A stretch of 64,000 nt of DNA from an uncultured Akkermansia sp. Lineage in GTDB: Bacteria; Verrucomicrobiota; Verrucomicrobiia; Verrucomicrobiales; Akkermansiaceae. Below, piece after piece: positions 40,866 to 49,061 of the stretch. Each line of letters starts with the position of its first letter. The first letter of the stretch is position 1. The position numbers and the translations under genes were made by a program. The stretch spans positions 35,245 through 99,244 of the forward strand of contig CALXRG010000007.1 of the NCBI GenBank assembly GCA_944390825.1. The letters are read 5' to 3'. The notes below the pieces were generated by a model that was given only the letters and a program-made list of their open reading frames with translations, ran no database searches and was not told the origin of the DNA.

Positions 40866-41197
40866 TGATGAGAGCCTCAGTAAGTATAGTGATATAATAG
40901 CAAGCCTTACTCATGATATAAGCCGTGGAAGTGTCTGTCAATAAGGAAGCGCATCATAATTCGTCATGGATGATTTGTGAGCGATCTACCGGCCAAAGTC
41001 CCATCCTGGAGCCGAAGCTCCGTCAATGCATCCTCCCTTCTGGATCGTTCTTCTTTCCTGTTTTTCATGCTTGCACCCGCACTTCTGCAATCATCGCTCT
41101 CTGACTCAATGGATCGGCCTTTTCTCTTTCATGACCTATATGAACATGAGCCGGATTGCTTTTCGGCCTTGACATATATGAGATAATAAAGCAAGGC

Positions 41198-42109
41198 ATG
41201 GCACACCATTCTCCCCTTCTCTTTGCACCACCGGCGCTCGCGGACGCATCAGCCGTGCGCGACGTGACGCTGCATGCGCGGGCCATGGGGAGCGACTTGG
41301 CGTTTGCAAACATCTATCTGCTTCAGCATAAGTATCATACAACAATCTGCATCCAGGACGGAATCCTCTACCGGCATTTCTCGGACAACGCGCGGCTCAG
41401 GGGTTATGCCTTTCCCTGCGGCGCAACAGATGCTGCAGCGGCCGATCACGCCCTGCGACTGATTGAAGCAGATGCACAAGCCCGGCAGCAGCAGCTGTCT
41501 TTTTGCCTGCTGACCGATGCCGATGCCCGGCTGCTGCAGCAACTCAGACCCAATCGCTTTGTATATACCTCAGACAGGGGCAATGCTGATTATCTGTACC
41601 GGCAAACGGATCTCTCCCAACTGCCCGGCACACCATACCACGCCAAGCGTAACCATCTGGCCCGGTTCAACCGCCTCCACCCGGAGTGGACATTCATTCC
41701 CTTTTCCGGAGAACGCGAGGCGGATGCCCGCTATGTTGCTGATGCCTGGTTTGATGCCTCTGACCGGAGTCCGGCCCTTGAGCACGAGCATCACGCCATC
41801 TGCCATGCCTTGCGCGCCGCCAGCGATCTTCAACTGACCGGCGGACTCATCTATGTGCAGGAGCAACCCATAGCCCTGGCCCTGAGCAGCTTCATCTCCC
41901 CGGAAGTGGCCGACATCCACTATGAAAAATGCCACCCTGATTTCCGCGTTGCTTACGCCGTGATCAATCACAGCATGGCCGGATTCCTGACATCAGCCGC
42001 CTACATCAACCGCGAGGAAGATATGAACGTCGACGGTCTCCGAAAAGCCAAACTGTCCTACCGCCCTGCCCTGCTCCTCAATAAATGGGATGCCGTACCC
42101 TGTCAGTAA
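41198..42109 (+). CDS. DUF2156 (phosphatidylglycerol lysyltransferase C-terminal-like) domain protein
   Basis: DRGNADYLY, YHAKRNH, HYEKC, YINREEDMNVDGLRKAKLSYRP. Confidence 0.85.
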   Translation: MAHHSPLLFAPPALADASAVRDVTLHARAMGSDLAFANIYLLQHKYHTTICIQDGILYRHFSDNARLRGYAFPCGATDAAAADHALRLIEADAQARQQQLSFCLLTDADARLLQQLRPNRFVYTSDRGNADYLYRQTDLSQLPGTPYHAKRNHLARFNRLHPEWTFIPFSGEREADARYVADAWFDASDRSPALEHEHHAICHALRAASDLQLTGGLIYVQEQPIALALSSFISPEVADIHYEKCHPDFRVAYAVINHSMAGFLTSAAYINREEDMNVDGLRKAKLSYRPALLLNKWDAVPCQ

Positions 42110-42364: not shown

Positions 42365-42913
42365 ATGCTTACTTCCATCTTTTCTCCTCAGCAATGCTCC
42401 ACGTGCAAACTCTGCTGCAACTTTCACCGCAGCTCCTCTTGGGAAACACCATTCCTTGAACCCGACCTGGTGCGGCAGTTGCAGGTGTTCCATGTGGAAC
42501 TTTTGAAACGACCCGATGGATCCTTCACATTTAAGCTTCCCTTTCAAACAAACAGTGACTCCGAATCCGCGAATTGTCCCATGCTTGACCCATCGAGCGG
42601 GTGCCGTCTTCCCCGGGAGCAACGCCCCTTCGAGTGTCGCATCTGGCCACTGCGCGTGATGAGGCTGGAAACCGGGTCTGCTGTTCTGGGGTGTTATGAA
42701 GCCTGTCCGGCCCTGGATGCTGCTACATTTGCCAAGCTCAGCGACTTTGCTCACGTGTCATTGCGGCAGCTTATCGTCGATCACGCTATGCGTTTTCCCC
42801 AGACCATCCGGTCATATCATCCACACTACCGCATTTTGGAAGCTCTGCCTGAACTCGACGGTTCGGATTCTTCCTTTGCAGGAACAGCAGATAACCGTTC
42901 CCTTTCTGAGTAG
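42365..42913 (+). CDS. YkgJ-family cysteine-cluster protein
   Basis: CSTCKLCC ... CPMLD...GC...RPFECRIWP. Confidence 0.8.
   Translation: MLTSIFSPQQCSTCKLCCNFHRSSSWETPFLEPDLVRQLQVFHVELLKRPDGSFTFKLPFQTNSDSESANCPMLDPSSGCRLPREQRPFECRIWPLRVMRLETGSAVLGCYEACPALDAATFAKLSDFAHVSLRQLIVDHAMRFPQTIRSYHPHYRILEALPELDGSDSSFAGTADNRSLSE
42486..42501. promoter_or_regulatory. parS: parS-like site (inside the YkgJ ORF)
   Basis: TGTTCCATGTGGAACT compared with the known consensus TGTT(T/C)CACGTG(A/G)AACA. Confidence 0.6.
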
Positions 42914-43262
42914 TGCGTGCGCCCCCCCCTGCCCTCGTGCGTATATTCAGCGACCTCTCCCAGCTCCATCAATACATGCAGCAAGCTCACCTGGAAGCTG
43001 ATCCTGCGCTTTCGCAAAGCTGCCCCTTCGAGGTGAACAGTGGGATCTGTTTCCCAACAGGAGACATCATCGCACAAACCATTCACAGCAAAAAAGCAGT
43101 TTTCCTTCAAGACTGGCAAGCAGCGCACGCTGCGCTGAGGCCGACAGCCGGGCATGTGATCTCGTCTTCACAGCAACGGTGATAAAAACAATAAAAAGCG
43201 TGGTCTCTGCCGTACCACGCTTTTTAATGCCATCTTGCTGCATCGCTACAGCCGAAAAGTTC

Positions 43263-43440
43263 ACCGCTGTGCCGTCAGTGGATGAAGAGCCACGTTCCCT
43301 TCAGTAAGGTGGGTGCGAAGCCAGGATTTATCTGAGGTATCCCCTATTGGGACGGAACATCAAATCCTGATACTTGAATGCCCCATGTTTGATAACAACG
43401 GTCCGGGCCTTGAGGTCCACGCGTCACGAGCACAGCAGCT
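43263..43440 (-). ncRNA. ssrS: 6S RNA
   Basis: About 178 nt. The 5' GCUGCUGUGC pairs fully with the 3' GCACAGCGGU; GUGGA/UCCAC, UGGG-GC/GC-A-CCCA and CAGGAUUU/AAAUCCUG form a rod with a central bubble; a promoter places the start at about 43440. Confidence 0.82.
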
Positions 43441-43446
43441 GTCTTA

Positions 43447-43475
43447 TATATAGCATGGCACCCCACTTTCTGCAA
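43447..43475 (-). promoter_or_regulatory. Promoter of the 6S RNA
   Basis: Minus strand TTGCAG-17-TATATA with TGC extended -10. Confidence 0.55.
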
Positions 43476-43529
43476 GTATTTTCTTCGCTTTTTAGCATAA
43501 CAGGTATTCATCACAGGCAGTATAAGTAT

Positions 43530-43545
43530 TGTTCCATATGGAACA
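43530..43545. promoter_or_regulatory. parS: parS-like site between the 6S and argS promoters
   Basis: Perfect 16-bp palindrome TGTTCCATATGGAACA, identical to 47034-47049. Confidence 0.75.
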
Positions 43546-43567
43546 TCTGGTTTCATTTGACATTGAT

Positions 43568-43596
43568 TTGACAAAACTATGAGAAATGTGTATAAA
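43568..43596 (+). promoter_or_regulatory. sigma70-like promoter of argS
   Basis: TTGACA-17-TATAAA, 14 nt before the ATG. Confidence 0.8.
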
Positions 43597-43610
43597 GAGC
43601 TCAGCATACC

Positions 43611-45365
43611 ATGACGATACCGACATTACTTTCTGAACAACTGACAACGTCACTGGCGAAGGTATTGGGTGATACCCTGCCGGCAGGTTTTGAAGCGAGT
43701 GTAACTGCTTCCCAGGACCTGCGCTTTGGCGACTACCAGAGCAACGCTGCCATGATGCTGGCCAAACAAGCAAAGATGAACCCACGCGCCTTGGCGACTC
43801 AGGTGGCAGAGGCTTTTGGTGAGAGTGAAATTGCTACGGCCGAGATTGCCGGCCCTGGATTCATCAATTTCCGCGTGAAACCATCGTATTTTGCGAAGCG
43901 CGCACAAATGATGCTTGGTGATGAGCGGTTGGGTGTTGCTAAGACGTCTCAGCCGAAAACGCTGGTGATTGATTTCTCTGCTCCGAATGTGGCGAAGCCG
44001 ATGCACGTTGGTCATATCCGCTCGACTATTATCGGCGACACTCTTGGCCGCCTGGCACGTTTCATGGGGCACACGGTGATCACGGACAATCATATTGGGG
44101 ACTGGGGGACACAGTTCGGTATGATTCTCTGGGGCTGGAAAAACCTGCTGAAGCAGGAAGATCTGGAGAAAGACCCCATTGAAGCACTGCTGGCAGTTTA
44201 CAAGAAAGTGAACGCCATGTGCAAGGAGGACCCTGCTCTGCTTCCGGTGTGCAAGGAGGAACTGGTCAAACTTCAGAGCGGCGACAAAGAAAATCTCGAC
44301 ATCTGGAAACGCTGCATTGCTGTCACCAAAACAGGTCTGGAGAAGATTTACAACCAGCTGGATATCCATTTTGACTACTGGCTGGGCGAAAGCGCCTACA
44401 ATGATGCTCTGGCCCCGCTTGTTGATGATTTGCTGGCCAAAGGAATCGCACGTGTGAGCGACGGTGCTGTCTGTGTCTTTTCAGATGGCTTCCACAAGCC
44501 ACAGGAAGACCCCTTCCTCGTGCAGAAAGACGGTGAATGGGTTCCCGTACCAGCCATCATCCGCAAAGCGGACGGCGGATTCCTGTACGCCACGACAGAT
44601 CTTGCTACGCTGGATTACCGTACAAAGCATTTTCAAGCTGACTCAATCTGGTACGTTGTCGGCGCACCTCAGGAAAAACACTTCAAGCAGATCTTCGACA
44701 TCGAACGCATGCGCGGCGTAAGCGGTGACTTCCGTCACGTCGCTTTTGGTTCGATTCTGGGTAAGGATCGCCGTCCGTTCAAGACGCGTTCAGGAGACAC
44801 GGTAAGCCTCCAGGACGTCATCGATGAGGCAATTGCCCGAGCGACGAAAGTTGTCGAGGAGAAAAGTCCGGATATGCCCGAGGATGAAAAGTCACACGTG
44901 GCACAAATCGTGGGTATTGGCGCAATTAAGTTTGCTGAGCTGTCCCAGAATCGTCTGAGTGACTACATTTTTGACTGGGACAAGATGCTGGCGCTTACCG
45001 GCGACACAGCTCCCTATCTTCAAAACTCATACGTTCGCGTGCGCTCTATTTTCCGCAAAATTGACGGTGAATTTAAAGCACCGGCTTCTCTCACCCTGTC
45101 CGAGGATGCAGAAATTCACCTGGCCAGACTTTTGGTGCGTTATGCAGAAGTTGTCCCGTCTACACTGGATGATTGCAAGCCGAACCTGCTTGCCGCCTAC
45201 CTCTATGAATTGGCACGCGCCTTCCACAGCTTCTACGAGGCCTGCCCGGTTCTCCGCAGCGAAGGCGATGTGAGGGAGTCTCGCCTAGCTCTTTGTGAGC
45301 TCACGGCGCGCGTTCTCAAGCAAGGAATGGGTCTTCTCGGAATCGAAATGCCAGACCGCATGTAA
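43611..45365 (+). CDS. argS: Arginine--tRNA ligase
   Basis: FGDYQSN, DFSAPNVAKPMHVGHIRS, GDWGTQFG, FKTRSG, GDTAPYLQ and DALR anticodon domain. Confidence 0.97.
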   Translation: MTIPTLLSEQLTTSLAKVLGDTLPAGFEASVTASQDLRFGDYQSNAAMMLAKQAKMNPRALATQVAEAFGESEIATAEIAGPGFINFRVKPSYFAKRAQMMLGDERLGVAKTSQPKTLVIDFSAPNVAKPMHVGHIRSTIIGDTLGRLARFMGHTVITDNHIGDWGTQFGMILWGWKNLLKQEDLEKDPIEALLAVYKKVNAMCKEDPALLPVCKEELVKLQSGDKENLDIWKRCIAVTKTGLEKIYNQLDIHFDYWLGESAYNDALAPLVDDLLAKGIARVSDGAVCVFSDGFHKPQEDPFLVQKDGEWVPVPAIIRKADGGFLYATTDLATLDYRTKHFQADSIWYVVGAPQEKHFKQIFDIERMRGVSGDFRHVAFGSILGKDRRPFKTRSGDTVSLQDVIDEAIARATKVVEEKSPDMPEDEKSHVAQIVGIGAIKFAELSQNRLSDYIFDWDKMLALTGDTAPYLQNSYVRVRSIFRKIDGEFKAPASLTLSEDAEIHLARLLVRYAEVVPSTLDDCKPNLLAAYLYELARAFHSFYEACPVLRSEGDVRESRLALCELTARVLKQGMGLLGIEMPDRM

Positions 45366-45370
45366 TTCCT

Positions 45371-46885
45371 ATGTTTCACATGGAACATTTTTGCAAGGCT
45401 GCCGCAATGGTTGTTGCGGCAGCCTTGCCACTTTGGGCTGGGACGAAAAACGGCACGTGGTCGTTTTCACAAGCTGCTTCATCAACTTCGCCGAAGTCAA
45501 TCCTTATGCCGGGGGAATGTTTCGTGGCTATTCCTCAAGGCCAGGACGATGCTGAAGCGAGCGAGTTAACGAATCAAGCGCTGCAGGAGCTTCTTCTTGG
45601 GGATCAGGAGCAGGCTTTTCGCCTGTTGACGCAGGCGATTGATTTAGCTCCGGACTCACTTTTGCCGCATGCTGCGCTGCTGGCTACAGGCTTATTATCT
45701 GACGCGACTGCACAACAGGAGCATGTTGATCACATCAGGCATTTGATTACTCTGAATCCCATGTTGACGCCTGCGGAGGAAACGGCCATGGCGTGGCTCC
45801 TTGATCTCGCCCGCGGAGAACATAATGAGGCATTGAAGAAAATCCAGGCTCACACGCAACGCTACCGAAACGATGTCTATACGCGCTGCTGGGAAATATT
45901 GCTGCTGCATTATGCCGGTCCCGGTTACGATCTCCTGGGCAACGCGTCGCCTGATCAGCAGCAAGCCGAGCAGCAGGCTGCAACACTCTTCTCACAAAAA
46001 CCAGACAACGGCCTGTCCTGCTTTGTCCGTGCACTTGTCGAAGAAGGGCGCCCCACAGTCACAGCCGAAGCATGCGAGGCTGCAAAACGCGCGGCAGGTT
46101 TTCTTCCACATCATCCCATCGCTCAGCAACTCTGTGCCCATATGCTGTACCGAGCTGGCCACTATGAAAACGTGGGGCACTATCTGCAACTGGCTCAACA
46201 ATGTCTCGACCAGCGCGAGCAAGCAAGGGAAGGGGAGTCATCCCGCTCATTATCTGCTGAGCGCAGCATCCAGCTCAGGCTCTATGAGGCTACTCTCTAC
46301 TCGACGCTCCGCATGGAAAAGAAAGCACTTGCTTTAAGGCGTTCCCTGAACGCCATACCGCTGCTGACCGGAGAAAACGCCGCTCGGGCTGATCAAATTC
46401 TGCTTCGCTGGGAAGCCCATACACTGCCTTTGCGTATCCTGTTCCTGCCCGGAGTCAAGCTGACTTCCTCCTGGATAAAAGCAGCATCCCGCGCCGCCAC
46501 CGTACCCGATAACTGTACCATATCCCCGAACGAACAGCACGCTCTTCATTCCGTGCGGGATTGCCTGGAAGCTTCTCTGAACGCGATTCTCTTCGCCAAG
46601 TCCAAGCAATACAGCAAAGCCCAGCAACATCTCCAGAGAGCAGAAAGCTTCGCAAAGCAATTGCAAGAGCAGGCACCGGCAGCAGCCAGTTCGCACCCAT
46701 CGCTTAAGCGCTATCTGACACGCCAGCTGGAGGCCTGCACCATCGCCATCAATCTCGCGAAAAAAGCTATCCATCCTGAGCAGGCAGATACATGGAATGC
46801 TGCCATCCGTGATGCGACCAGACCCCCCTCGGTCATGTTGCCGCCAGTCATTCCTCCCGTCTGCGCTGACTCCAAGCCGTCTTAA
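45371..46885 (+). CDS. Exported alpha-helical (TPR-like) hypothetical protein; exact start uncertain
   Basis: Signal-like AMVVAAALPLWAG; Ala/Leu/Gln-rich helical repeats such as AFRLLTQAIDLAPD. Confidence 0.65.
   Translation: MFHMEHFCKAAAMVVAAALPLWAGTKNGTWSFSQAASSTSPKSILMPGECFVAIPQGQDDAEASELTNQALQELLLGDQEQAFRLLTQAIDLAPDSLLPHAALLATGLLSDATAQQEHVDHIRHLITLNPMLTPAEETAMAWLLDLARGEHNEALKKIQAHTQRYRNDVYTRCWEILLLHYAGPGYDLLGNASPDQQQAEQQAATLFSQKPDNGLSCFVRALVEEGRPTVTAEACEAAKRAAGFLPHHPIAQQLCAHMLYRAGHYENVGHYLQLAQQCLDQREQAREGESSRSLSAERSIQLRLYEATLYSTLRMEKKALALRRSLNAIPLLTGENAARADQILLRWEAHTLPLRILFLPGVKLTSSWIKAASRAATVPDNCTISPNEQHALHSVRDCLEASLNAILFAKSKQYSKAQQHLQRAESFAKQLQEQAPAAASSHPSLKRYLTRQLEACTIAINLAKKAIHPEQADTWNAAIRDATRPPSVMLPPVIPPVCADSKPS
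45372..45387. promoter_or_regulatory. parS: parS-like site just after the argS stop
   Basis: TGTTTCACATGGAACA. Confidence 0.7.
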
Positions 46886-47033
46886 ACAGCATTCGTAAGA
46901 CTCAGCAACCCCACAACGCAGACACGACAAACCCACAACCGCAGACACGAATATGCAACCCGGTTGTGGGCGGCTGATGCCTGCAGAAGTGGCTGTAAAG
47001 ATACCTGCAAAACGATGTTTAGGTTCCCCTTAA

Positions 47034-47049
47034 TGTTCCATATGGAACA
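47034..47049. promoter_or_regulatory. parS: parS-like site
   Basis: Perfect palindrome TGTTCCATATGGAACA in an intergenic spacer. Confidence 0.75.
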
Positions 47050-47120: not shown

Positions 47121-47756
47121 ATGAACCGAACAATGTTCCGTAAGGCTGTGCTGCTTCTGCTTCCGCTGCTTCTGCCTTCCTGCGCCTATCTCCAAACGCA
47201 CAAAAATATCAAGGAAATAGGTGCAGTATATGATGGCTTCGAGCTTGATAATACCACCACGCTATACCGCCAGGGTAATCAATGGTACATGGCAGTCAGC
47301 AAATGTAAAATGACAAAGGAGTATCCGGCGCTGCATGATAATGTCATGTTTACCGAGCAGAATCAGGATCCCCGGTTTGAAGAACTCACTGGTGTGGAAG
47401 GTAACAAACAGACCGTATACGTTCCTGTTTCCTCTGCCACGGCACAAGTTCTTCAACACAACAATGGTTATTTTACGAAGTCGGTTCTGCTGCAGGAGTT
47501 GAAAGATAACATATCCTTAGCCCGGACAACTTTGCCGGGCAAGTCAGCGCATTCCATTTGCGCTGCCGTTGAAGGAAAACAAACGTCCTTTACAATCGAC
47601 TCTTCGCGCAGTCCTCAAAAGCCCGGTGCAGCGCTGACGGCCGTCAGTTGGGTGGATCGGGTAGTCATCGACTGGCCCGGTACCTTGGTTTACAATGTCT
47701 GTATTCCCTTCATGGCACCCTTCGCCTTCTTCTCTGATTTCCTCTCAGACAATTGA
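47121..47756 (+). CDS. Hypothetical lipoprotein
   Basis: MNRTMFRKAVLLLLPLLLPSC lipoprotein signal; conserved-looking C-terminus VIDWPGTLVYN. Confidence 0.75.
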   Translation: MNRTMFRKAVLLLLPLLLPSCAYLQTHKNIKEIGAVYDGFELDNTTTLYRQGNQWYMAVSKCKMTKEYPALHDNVMFTEQNQDPRFEELTGVEGNKQTVYVPVSSATAQVLQHNNGYFTKSVLLQELKDNISLARTTLPGKSAHSICAAVEGKQTSFTIDSSRSPQKPGAALTAVSWVDRVVIDWPGTLVYNVCIPFMAPFAFFSDFLSDN

Positions 47757-48002
47757 TAATCAATCTGTTATATTCATATTAACCAAAATTGTGAATAAGT
47801 CTGTGAATAAAGCGTGCGTGGAACTGTGCGTAAGATTTACTCACGTTCTTCATTCTGGTATCAACCGACTTACTCACTGTGTCAGGCAGATGTAAAAAGT
47901 TGAATGCGAAGTCCAAAGTGCAGTTATCAACATATCAACACGGCTGATGACGATGAATTTATTTTAAGTATAAATTCATCTTTCAGCACTCACACATGAT
48001 AA
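47757..48002. other. Candidate replication origin (oriC): DnaA-box cluster plus AT-rich element
   Basis: TGTGAATAA at 47790 and 47802 (perfect TTWTNCACA on the minus strand); TGTGCGTAA at 47825 and TTATCAACA at 47924 (1 mismatch); TTACTCACG at 47837, TTACTCACT at 47870 and ATATCAACA at 47932 (2 mismatches); 24/29 A+T at 47952-47980; four parS-like sites within about 5 kb. Confidence 0.65.
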
Positions 48003-49061
48003 ATGAACATAGCGGAGGAAAGAGAAGCAGAAGATAAGCGCTGGATGCAGCGGGCAGTCAGTTTGGGCTACCGTGGTTGGGGCACCACAAGTCCCAATCC
48101 GCCTGTCGGGGCTGTTATCGTTAAAGGCGGCTGCGTCCTGGGTGAAGGCTTTCACGAGCGGGCAGGGGAACCTCATGCTGAACGCCGGGCTTTGGCTGAT
48201 GCCCGTGCTCGCGGTCATGCGTCTGAACTCCGTGGCGCCACGATTTATGTGACGCTTGAACCCTGTTCCAGCTATGGTCGCACGCCACCCTGCACAGATG
48301 CCATTCTTGAATCCGGCATCGCCCGGGTAGTCTATGGGGCGCAGGATCCTGATCCACGCCACCAGGGCCGCGCAGACGGGCTTTTACGGGCGGCCGGCAT
48401 CGATGTTTCAGCAGGGGTAGAGCAGGGGGCCTGTAAGCAGCTTCTGCGGCCCTGGATTTACGCCACCTTGCACAGACGCCCGTGGGTGCTGGCTAAGGTA
48501 GCATGCACGCTTGACGGAAGCATGGCCAGAAAGTACACCCGCTGGGTCAGCAGCCCGGAAGCTCTGGCGTACGCGCATGAGTGCCGCTTGCGCAGCGACG
48601 CTATTCTCGTGGGTGGTCAAACAGTGCGCAGCGATGACCCCTCGCTGACCATTCGGCAGCCCCTTTCTGCCATTCCTGAAAAAAAGCGCCAACCCTGGCG
48701 CATCGTCCTTACCCGCGACCCTCATTCCCTCCCACCCACGGCCAAGGTTTTCACAGACGCTTACGCTGAAAGAACCCTGGTGTACAGCAACGTCGCGAAT
48801 TTACCTGATCTGCTGGCTGAATTATACAGCCAATACGGCATTATCACGCTGATGCTTGAGTGCGGCGGACATTTGCTGCGGTCGTTTTTGGAAGAGCACC
48901 TGGTCAATGAATGGGTACAGGATATAGCGCCCATTTTAGCTGGCAACGGACAACCCATGCTTCCAGGAGGGTACTTGCCCGGTGAAGCCCATTTGGAAAT
49001 CTCCGAGATGCAGCAATGTGGCGTTGACCGCATCCTGCGCGGAATGATACGATACAGTTGA
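48003..49061 (+). CDS. ribD: Bifunctional riboflavin biosynthesis deaminase/reductase
   Basis: TSPNPPVGAVIVK, HAE, TLEPC...TPPC, TLDG, GGQTVRSDDPSLT, LECGG. Confidence 0.96.
   Translation: MNIAEEREAEDKRWMQRAVSLGYRGWGTTSPNPPVGAVIVKGGCVLGEGFHERAGEPHAERRALADARARGHASELRGATIYVTLEPCSSYGRTPPCTDAILESGIARVVYGAQDPDPRHQGRADGLLRAAGIDVSAGVEQGACKQLLRPWIYATLHRRPWVLAKVACTLDGSMARKYTRWVSSPEALAYAHECRLRSDAILVGGQTVRSDDPSLTIRQPLSAIPEKKRQPWRIVLTRDPHSLPPTAKVFTDAYAERTLVYSNVANLPDLLAELYSQYGIITLMLECGGHLLRSFLEEHLVNEWVQDIAPILAGNGQPMLPGGYLPGEAHLEISEMQQCGVDRILRGMIRYS

Follow-up and report, generated by a model that had tools for sequence, protein, structure and literature searches.

Four 16-bp palindromes in the metagenome-assembled genome of an uncultured gut Akkermansia species are very probably, as judged from their letters, position and conservation, chromosomal parS sites located beside a replication origin that is distant from dnaA. 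The window is a stretch of 64,000 nucleotides (C7:35245-99244) from an assembly of 2,317,452 bp in 47 contigs with 59% G+C, labelled G000, and a pattern search of it finds exactly four palindromes of the form TGTTYCAYRTGRAACW, at 42486, 43530, 45372 and 47034. Site 1 (42486..42501, TGTTCCATGTGGAACT) has the centre CATGTG, in which one half is substituted and the intact GTTCCAC half is read on the minus strand. Site 2 (43530..43545, TGTTCCATATGGAACA) is a perfect palindrome with the doubly substituted centre CATATG and lies 66-81 bp upstream of the start of the arginyl-tRNA synthetase gene argS; site 3 (45372..45387, TGTTTCACATGGAACA) has the hemi-substituted centre CACATG and begins 7 bp past the argS stop codon; and site 4 (47034..47049, TGTTCCATATGGAACA) repeats the perfect palindrome of site 2, with centre CATATG, 72-87 bp upstream of a lipoprotein open reading frame (ORF; 47121-47756). 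The spacings are 1044, 1842 and 1662 bp, so that all four sites fall within 4.6 kb. All match the arms tGTT(T/C)CA....TG(A/G)AACa, over the full 16 of 16 positions of a perfect palindrome in the case of sites 2 and 4, and sites 1 and 3 each keep one intact half, GTTCCAC or GTTTCAC. The C in position 5 of the arm matches the Pseudomonas-type parS TGTTCCACGTGGAACA and is thus nothing out of the ordinary.

The four sites have no counterpart elsewhere in the genome. Across the whole 2.32-Mb assembly, neither TGTTYCAYRTGRAACW nor its 14-bp core GTTYCAYRTGRAAC is matched by anything else, no other sequence lies within two mismatches of TGTTCCATATGGAACA, and a search of all 47 contigs for the canonical GTTTCACGTGAAAC returns nothing; 100 dinucleotide-preserving shuffles gave no match to the site pattern. 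The textbook parS TGTTTCACGTGAAACA differs from each site by two to four mismatches, with only site 3 coming within three, and the usual search for TGTTTCACGTGAAACA with up to two mismatches recovers site 3 alone of the four. The original prediction had described four palindromes at these positions and with these letters, had seen no further copy in the window and had noted that none has a CACGTG centre; direct reading and pattern search bear out all of this, CACGTG being found at none of the four centres. The genome-wide search for enrichment that it proposed was run, and it places every copy in the same 4.6 kb, not scattered over the chromosome.

Conservation was examined in 80 Akkermansia argS loci, in 41 related genomes of the genus and order, and in 16 genomes from other genera. 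The core GTTYCAYRTGRAAC occurs in 39 of the 41 related genomes at one to seven copies, mostly in tight clusters, compared with zero or one copy of a reversed control. All 80 argS loci hold sites, between one and seven each and 332 in total, at two recurring positions, "U" upstream of the argS start and "D" just past the argS stop, to which site 2 and site 3, respectively, are orthologous. The same CACATG-centred sites flank argS in A. muciniphila, whose argS-ribD region (locus L068) has two sites with CACATG and one with CACGTG. The 12 arm positions show 96-100% invariance across the orthologous sites (U, n=54; D, n=57), and all four bases occur at flanking positions more than 2 nt away, which indicates that divergence around the sites is saturating. 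The centres vary only by exchange of C for T and of G for A. Among the 318 sites with perfect arms in the 80 loci, there are 195 CA/TG centres, 114 CG centres and nine TA centres, and no transversion. Double substitution at orthologous sites was seen once, in site 2, versus about 15 occurrences expected if the two halves varied independently, a comparison that is not corrected for phylogeny. Site 2 is the only TA centre among the 54 orthologous U sites, and this genome has two of these rare centres; no other species was found to combine TA at the argS-upstream site with the loss of every CG centre. A directional role of the asymmetric CACATG centre was considered and rejected, the two CA:TG orientations being balanced (16:16 and 25:23) at the two orthologous sites.

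Outside Akkermansia, clusters of the sites are present in 15 of the 16 genomes sampled from other genera of the order Verrucomicrobiales, the exception being an 83%-complete genome, and every genome tested encodes ParB. The clustered GTTCCACGTGGAAC sites of the 15 genomes comprise 30 with a CG centre and five with a CA centre. Because TGTTCCACGTGGAACA predominates in the sister genera, it is likely to be the ancestral site of the order. Central CG accounts for 30 of 35 clustered sites in other Verrucomicrobiales, compared with 36% of those in the Akkermansia argS loci and none of four here. By this comparison of aligned sites, transitions have removed the central CpG in much of Akkermansia, and the non-canonical centre in the window is real and part of a genus-wide relaxation that admits transitions only. 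The species is the extreme case, with no CG centre, two hemi-substituted centres and two doubly substituted ones. A different variant, TGTTCCACGTAGAACA, with G to A at arm position 11, is shared by two distant Akkermansia (G007:1,235,220 and G051:C2:600,773), each of which also has a perfect TGTTCCACGTGGAACA at a distance of 4.6-5.4 kb.

The genome encodes partition proteins that could act on such sites. The original prediction had called for parB to be located and its specificity residues compared. The sole ParB of the genome (C1:169029-169907, 293 aa) matches Pfam ParB_N with 104.6 bits and TIGR00180 with 181.6 bits (cut-off 58.45), aligns to solved Spo0J, ParB and Noc structures with E values of 1e-45 to 1e-50, and carries the GERRLRA box that binds cytidine triphosphate (CTP). 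Aligned to ParB of Caulobacter, it keeps Q162, G170-K171-S172-R173, N178 and G201, of which R173 and G201 are reported to be invariant in ParB proteins that bind parS (PMC7383237); Arg204 is replaced by Lys, and residue 179 is Met. The ParA/Soj protein is a 258-aa ATPase with a deviant Walker A motif (PF13614, 184.5 bits) encoded on the minus strand of contig C23. parB is preceded by an unrelated ORF of 310-413 aa that resembles a coiled coil, and parA is not adjacent; thus, the usual parAB operon is split. Searches for SMC gave no SMC_hinge match to Pfam in the genome, with limited sensitivity since the control search also missed Caulobacter; no SMC-like Walker A was present in long ORFs, and a motif-based SMC search returned only ABC ATPases. 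A Hi-C study of the OMM12 strains likewise reports no recognisable condensin homologue in A. muciniphila (PMC10197239). ParB-parS here may work without SMC loading, and because no SMC condensin was detected, its role is probably segregation and organisation of the origin region instead.

The element beside the cluster is a gap of 246 bp (47757..48002) directly upstream of ribD (48003..49061, plus strand; TIGR00326, 275.7 bits), which is the probable core of oriC. It contains 9-mers that resemble DnaA boxes, TTATTCACA at 47790 and 47802 and TTATCAACA at 47924. The parS cluster lies to one side of this gap at a distance of 0.7-5.3 kb, with 708 bp between site 4 and the gap. Among the 70 ribD-bearing loci (69 argS loci and locus L129), 59 show at least two DnaA boxes within 400 bp upstream of the gene, and ribD stays beside DnaA boxes and parS even in distant Akkermansia from which argS has moved away. 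Two of these distant relatives have complete genomes, whose GC skew was read in sampled windows and whose loci are L129 (G007:1,228,001-1,248,000) and L193 (G044:420,001-440,000). In G007 (3,175,525 bp), the parS sites are at 1,235,220 and 1,239,837, with ribD between them and three TTATTCACA boxes before ribD; dnaA is at 422, argS is about 31 kb from dnaA, and the parS sites are 1.24 Mb from it. The 20-kb windows sampled in G007 up to 1.228 Mb all (17 of 17) have negative GC skew, and the skew is then mostly positive to about 2.85 Mb. In G044 (3,497,179 bp), the parS sites are at 426,751 and 432,847, ribD is at 425,304 with three TTATTCACA boxes at 425,063-425,192, dnaA is at 2,806,986, and the sign of the skew switches from minus to plus in the stretch from 400 to 420 kb. 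In both genomes, the DnaA-box cluster upstream of ribD is at a sign change of GC skew, 1.1-1.24 Mb from dnaA. The gene order of G007 is scrambled relative to that of G000, but the module of parS, DnaA boxes and ribD is kept. A link of the cluster to dnaA by synteny through G007 was rejected, the gene order being too scrambled for it.

The presence of parS, DnaA boxes and ribD together at the skew switch in two complete relatives supports the assignment of an origin to 47757-48002, and the oriC of Akkermansia is probably the cluster of DnaA boxes, mostly TTATTCACA, that immediately precedes ribD. The original prediction had offered the palindromes as independent support for a neighbouring origin, and this expectation held up, parS flanking the ribD-upstream boxes at the skew switch in both genomes. 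Its proposal that the array is the chromosomal centromere is likewise supported, by clustering that is unique in the genome, by arms that are those of proven parS sites, by the presence of ParB and ParA, and by conservation in 80 loci.

According to this reading, the four sites would be Pseudomonas-type parS TGTTCCACGTGGAACA whose central CpG underwent transitions, and they would serve as loading sites for a CTP-dependent ParB clamp. ParB dimers are predicted to nucleate on the parS sites and then to spread or slide across the origin region, after which the ParA ATPase would pull ParB-bound origin regions apart. We infer from sequence comparison both the binding of ParB at the four sites and the relative strength of CG, CA and TA centres. 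The sites are few, are clustered in the origin domain, have a cognate ParB and are conserved in position, as expected of parS, but they lack the CACGTG core. Other observations also weigh against the assignment. The genes parB, parA and dnaA (C10:72264-72761) are all unlinked to the parS cluster, the three of them and the parS/origin region each being on a separate contig. Three of the four sites are intergenic or a short way upstream of promoters, where operators of transcription factors also sit. Affinity in Pseudomonas aeruginosa is helped by an intact CACGTG, so the CATATG sites here may be weak. The GC skew of contig C7 alone is noisy and only roughly consistent with this origin, its cumulative minimum being near 55.7 kb of the window, some 8 kb rightward of the cluster; identification of the origin from this curve was dropped as too noisy, and the skew of the two complete relatives was used instead.

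If the four palindromes are parS sites, the substituted centres could reflect a ParB that has changed its specificity or one that tolerates the substitutions. The recognition helix and the GHAK segment are near-identical across 30 Akkermansia ParB proteins, and the helix-turn-helix and GHAK segments are alike in species whose sites are all CACGTG (G001, G003) and in species whose sites are all CAYRTG (G000, G004, G009). Lys204 in place of the usually conserved Arg204 is order-wide in the Verrucomicrobiales tested, as in Spo0J of Helicobacter pylori. Residue 179 is Met (VANM) in 30 of 30 core Akkermansia ParB proteins (loci L093-L122) and Ser, Thr or Ala in distant Akkermansia (G007, G044, G051) and 15 other Verrucomicrobiales, together loci L170-L187; parS binding is retained with any of 17 amino acids at this position (PMC7383237). 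A change of ParB specificity that follows centre usage was therefore rejected, since only M179 differs, as a single phylogenetic event at a permissive position. Because the contact segments are unchanged between centre types, the pattern points to tolerance of a pyrimidine-purine centre and not to a re-specified protein. From the range of centres at conserved sites, any pyrimidine-purine centre (CAYRTG) appears to suffice for Akkermansia ParB, with a preference for centres that keep one G:C pair or more. The original prediction had proposed that ParB tolerates or prefers a core free of CpG. Tolerance is favoured by the genus-wide transitions and the lack of transversions; preference finds no support, because the DNA-contact residues are the same in CACGTG-only and CAYRTG species, the sister genera mostly have CACGTG, and CATATG, with both halves substituted, is seldom found in Akkermansia. 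A stronger form of the tolerance model, which is unlikely, is that core Akkermansia ParB with M179 has a relaxed readout of the centre, based on shape or purine N7, that accepts any pyrimidine-purine step but needs at least one G:C pair, in which case the species would be a natural intermediate toward CATATG-centred parS. If so, CATATG-centred parS could be orthogonal to canonical ParB.

The likeliest alternative is that the sites derive from parS but are partly decayed, such that only the hemi-substituted sites 1 and 3 nucleate ParB, the CATATG sites 2 and 4 survive as remnants with little or no activity, and the centromere of the species is weakening, with no new core in use. This is a tentative possibility, less likely than functional sites. 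It would account for the rarity of CATATG (nine of 318 perfect-arm sites) and for the single doubly substituted centre where about 15 are expected, and it agrees with the importance of the CACGTG core for affinity in P. aeruginosa; the constraint could be relaxed, given that no SMC was detected and that mutants without parS are viable in other species. However, dead sites are expected to lose arm positions as well, and both CATATG sites keep perfect 16/16 arms while nearby non-coding positions are saturated genus-wide; moreover, the substitutions are transitions only. Loss of the central CpG through mutation or restriction pressure, and not through tolerance by ParB, is improbable. Deamination of 5-methylcytosine at ACGT or CACGTG would leave exactly the changes that are seen, all of them C to T or G to A at CpG, and avoidance of an enzyme that cuts CACGTG would remove the same core, but the ratio of observed to expected CpG in the genome is 0.96 and that of ACGT is 0.91, and CACGTG occurs 309 times versus 284 expected (a ratio of 1.09) and is thus not avoided. 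With frequencies of CpG, ACGT and CACGTG that are normal genome-wide, restriction avoidance and global methyl-CpG decay are unsupported, and both were rejected. Mutation pressure alone cannot hold transversions at zero while flanks are saturated, and tolerance by ParB would still be required for the arms to stay conserved.

It is highly improbable that the palindromes are operators through which a transcription factor other than ParB regulates argS and its neighbours. Sites 2 and 4 are indeed about 20-40 bp upstream of -35 elements that resemble those of sigma-70 promoters, and three of the four sites are intergenic, but a regulon confined to 4.6 kb of genes that share no function, in which one site falls within a coding sequence and no site lies elsewhere in the genome, would be atypical. 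The sequence is also that of a known Pseudomonas parS; in distant Akkermansia the sites have quit argS and remain beside the DnaA boxes and ribD, where the skew switches; and the same clusters recur in 15 of 16 genomes of other genera, with ParB in every genome tested.

Site 1 is in frame (V-F-H-V-E-L) inside an ORF of 182 aa rich in Cys (42365-42913), which has a weak Pfam match, just below the cut-off, to PF03692 (CxxCxxCC domain). argS (43611..45365, plus strand), which is bracketed by sites 2 and 3, is the synteny anchor in most Akkermansia; a search with it found 534 relatives, of which the best is 86% identical and the nearest are metagenome-assembled genomes from animal guts, and on this basis the genome is placed in Akkermansia. 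In the longest version of the next ORF, which encodes a TPR-like protein, the start ATG overlaps site 3 (M-F-H-M-E-H; window positions 45371-45410). A second ATG at about 45411 precedes MVVAAALPLWAG, which resembles a signal peptide; thus, translation probably begins at a later codon than the first ATG, which leaves site 3 between genes. The ORF at 41156-42109, immediately before the parS cluster, encodes a C-terminal domain of phosphatidylglycerol lysyltransferase (PF09924, 111.6 bits). Gene orientation flips from minus to plus near 41 kb, which fits a nearby origin.

Placing the centromere and origin of Akkermansia at argS-ribD instead of at dnaA matters for growth-rate estimates based on coverage, for interpretation of Hi-C data and for studies of strand bias in a gut genus of medical interest. 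Routine parS finders that use TGTTTCACGTGAAACA with up to two mismatches detect one of the four sites here and would miss the CACATG-centred sites of A. muciniphila. The argS loci amount to a natural mutational scan, in which the arms are held under saturating divergence, the centre changes by transition only and double transitions are rare; this pattern is a testable statement about how ParB reads the centre of parS.

The known picture of ParABS is unchanged by these results, and the feature is of an ordinary type, unusual only in that its central CG has drifted to CA, TG or TA. For A. muciniphila YL44, the OMM12 Hi-C study used parS clusters and GC skew to place the origin, which its authors note need not be at dnaA, and the secondary diagonal is barely visible (PMC10197239). 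The study searched for TGTTTCACGTGAAACA with up to two mismatches, a threshold that would miss the CACATG-centred TGTTCCACATGGAACA, which has three mismatches to TGTTTCACGTGAAACA, and the parts of it that were read contain no description of a centre that varies by transition only or of the ribD/DnaA-box module (PMC10197239). The textbook parS TGTTTCACGTGAAACA (Spo0J of Bacillus subtilis, ParB of Caulobacter) belongs to the same palindrome family and is origin-proximal (PMC7383237), and the ParB described here has the same fold and keeps the contact residues of that type.

Comparison with P. aeruginosa is closest in sequence. The 16-bp arms TGTTCCA....TGGAACA of its parS2 and parS3 (TGTTCCACGTGGAACA) are identical to those found here, and parS1-4 likewise form a small cluster of four sites beside oriC (PMC4368675). 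In chromatin immunoprecipitation sequencing (ChIP-seq) of P. aeruginosa ParB, GTTCCAT and GTTTCAT half-sites are enriched, and C to T is allowed at the inner position in vivo (PMC5961200); from this enrichment, the substitution has a precedent as a tolerated, probably weaker, variant. Of the sites tested in vitro, the CACATG-like parS5 (TGTTCTACATGGAACA) binds most weakly, and in vivo no ParB is bound to it (PMC4368675, PMC5961200). The sites of P. aeruginosa that are competent for segregation all keep CACGTG, whereas none does here and two are CATATG, and the parAB genes, which in Pseudomonas are only about 7 kb away from oriC, are unlinked in this genome. Within the order, the GTTCCACGTGGAAC clusters of other Verrucomicrobiales have the same arms as the sites described here, with two to five sites within a few kilobases and one ParB per genome.

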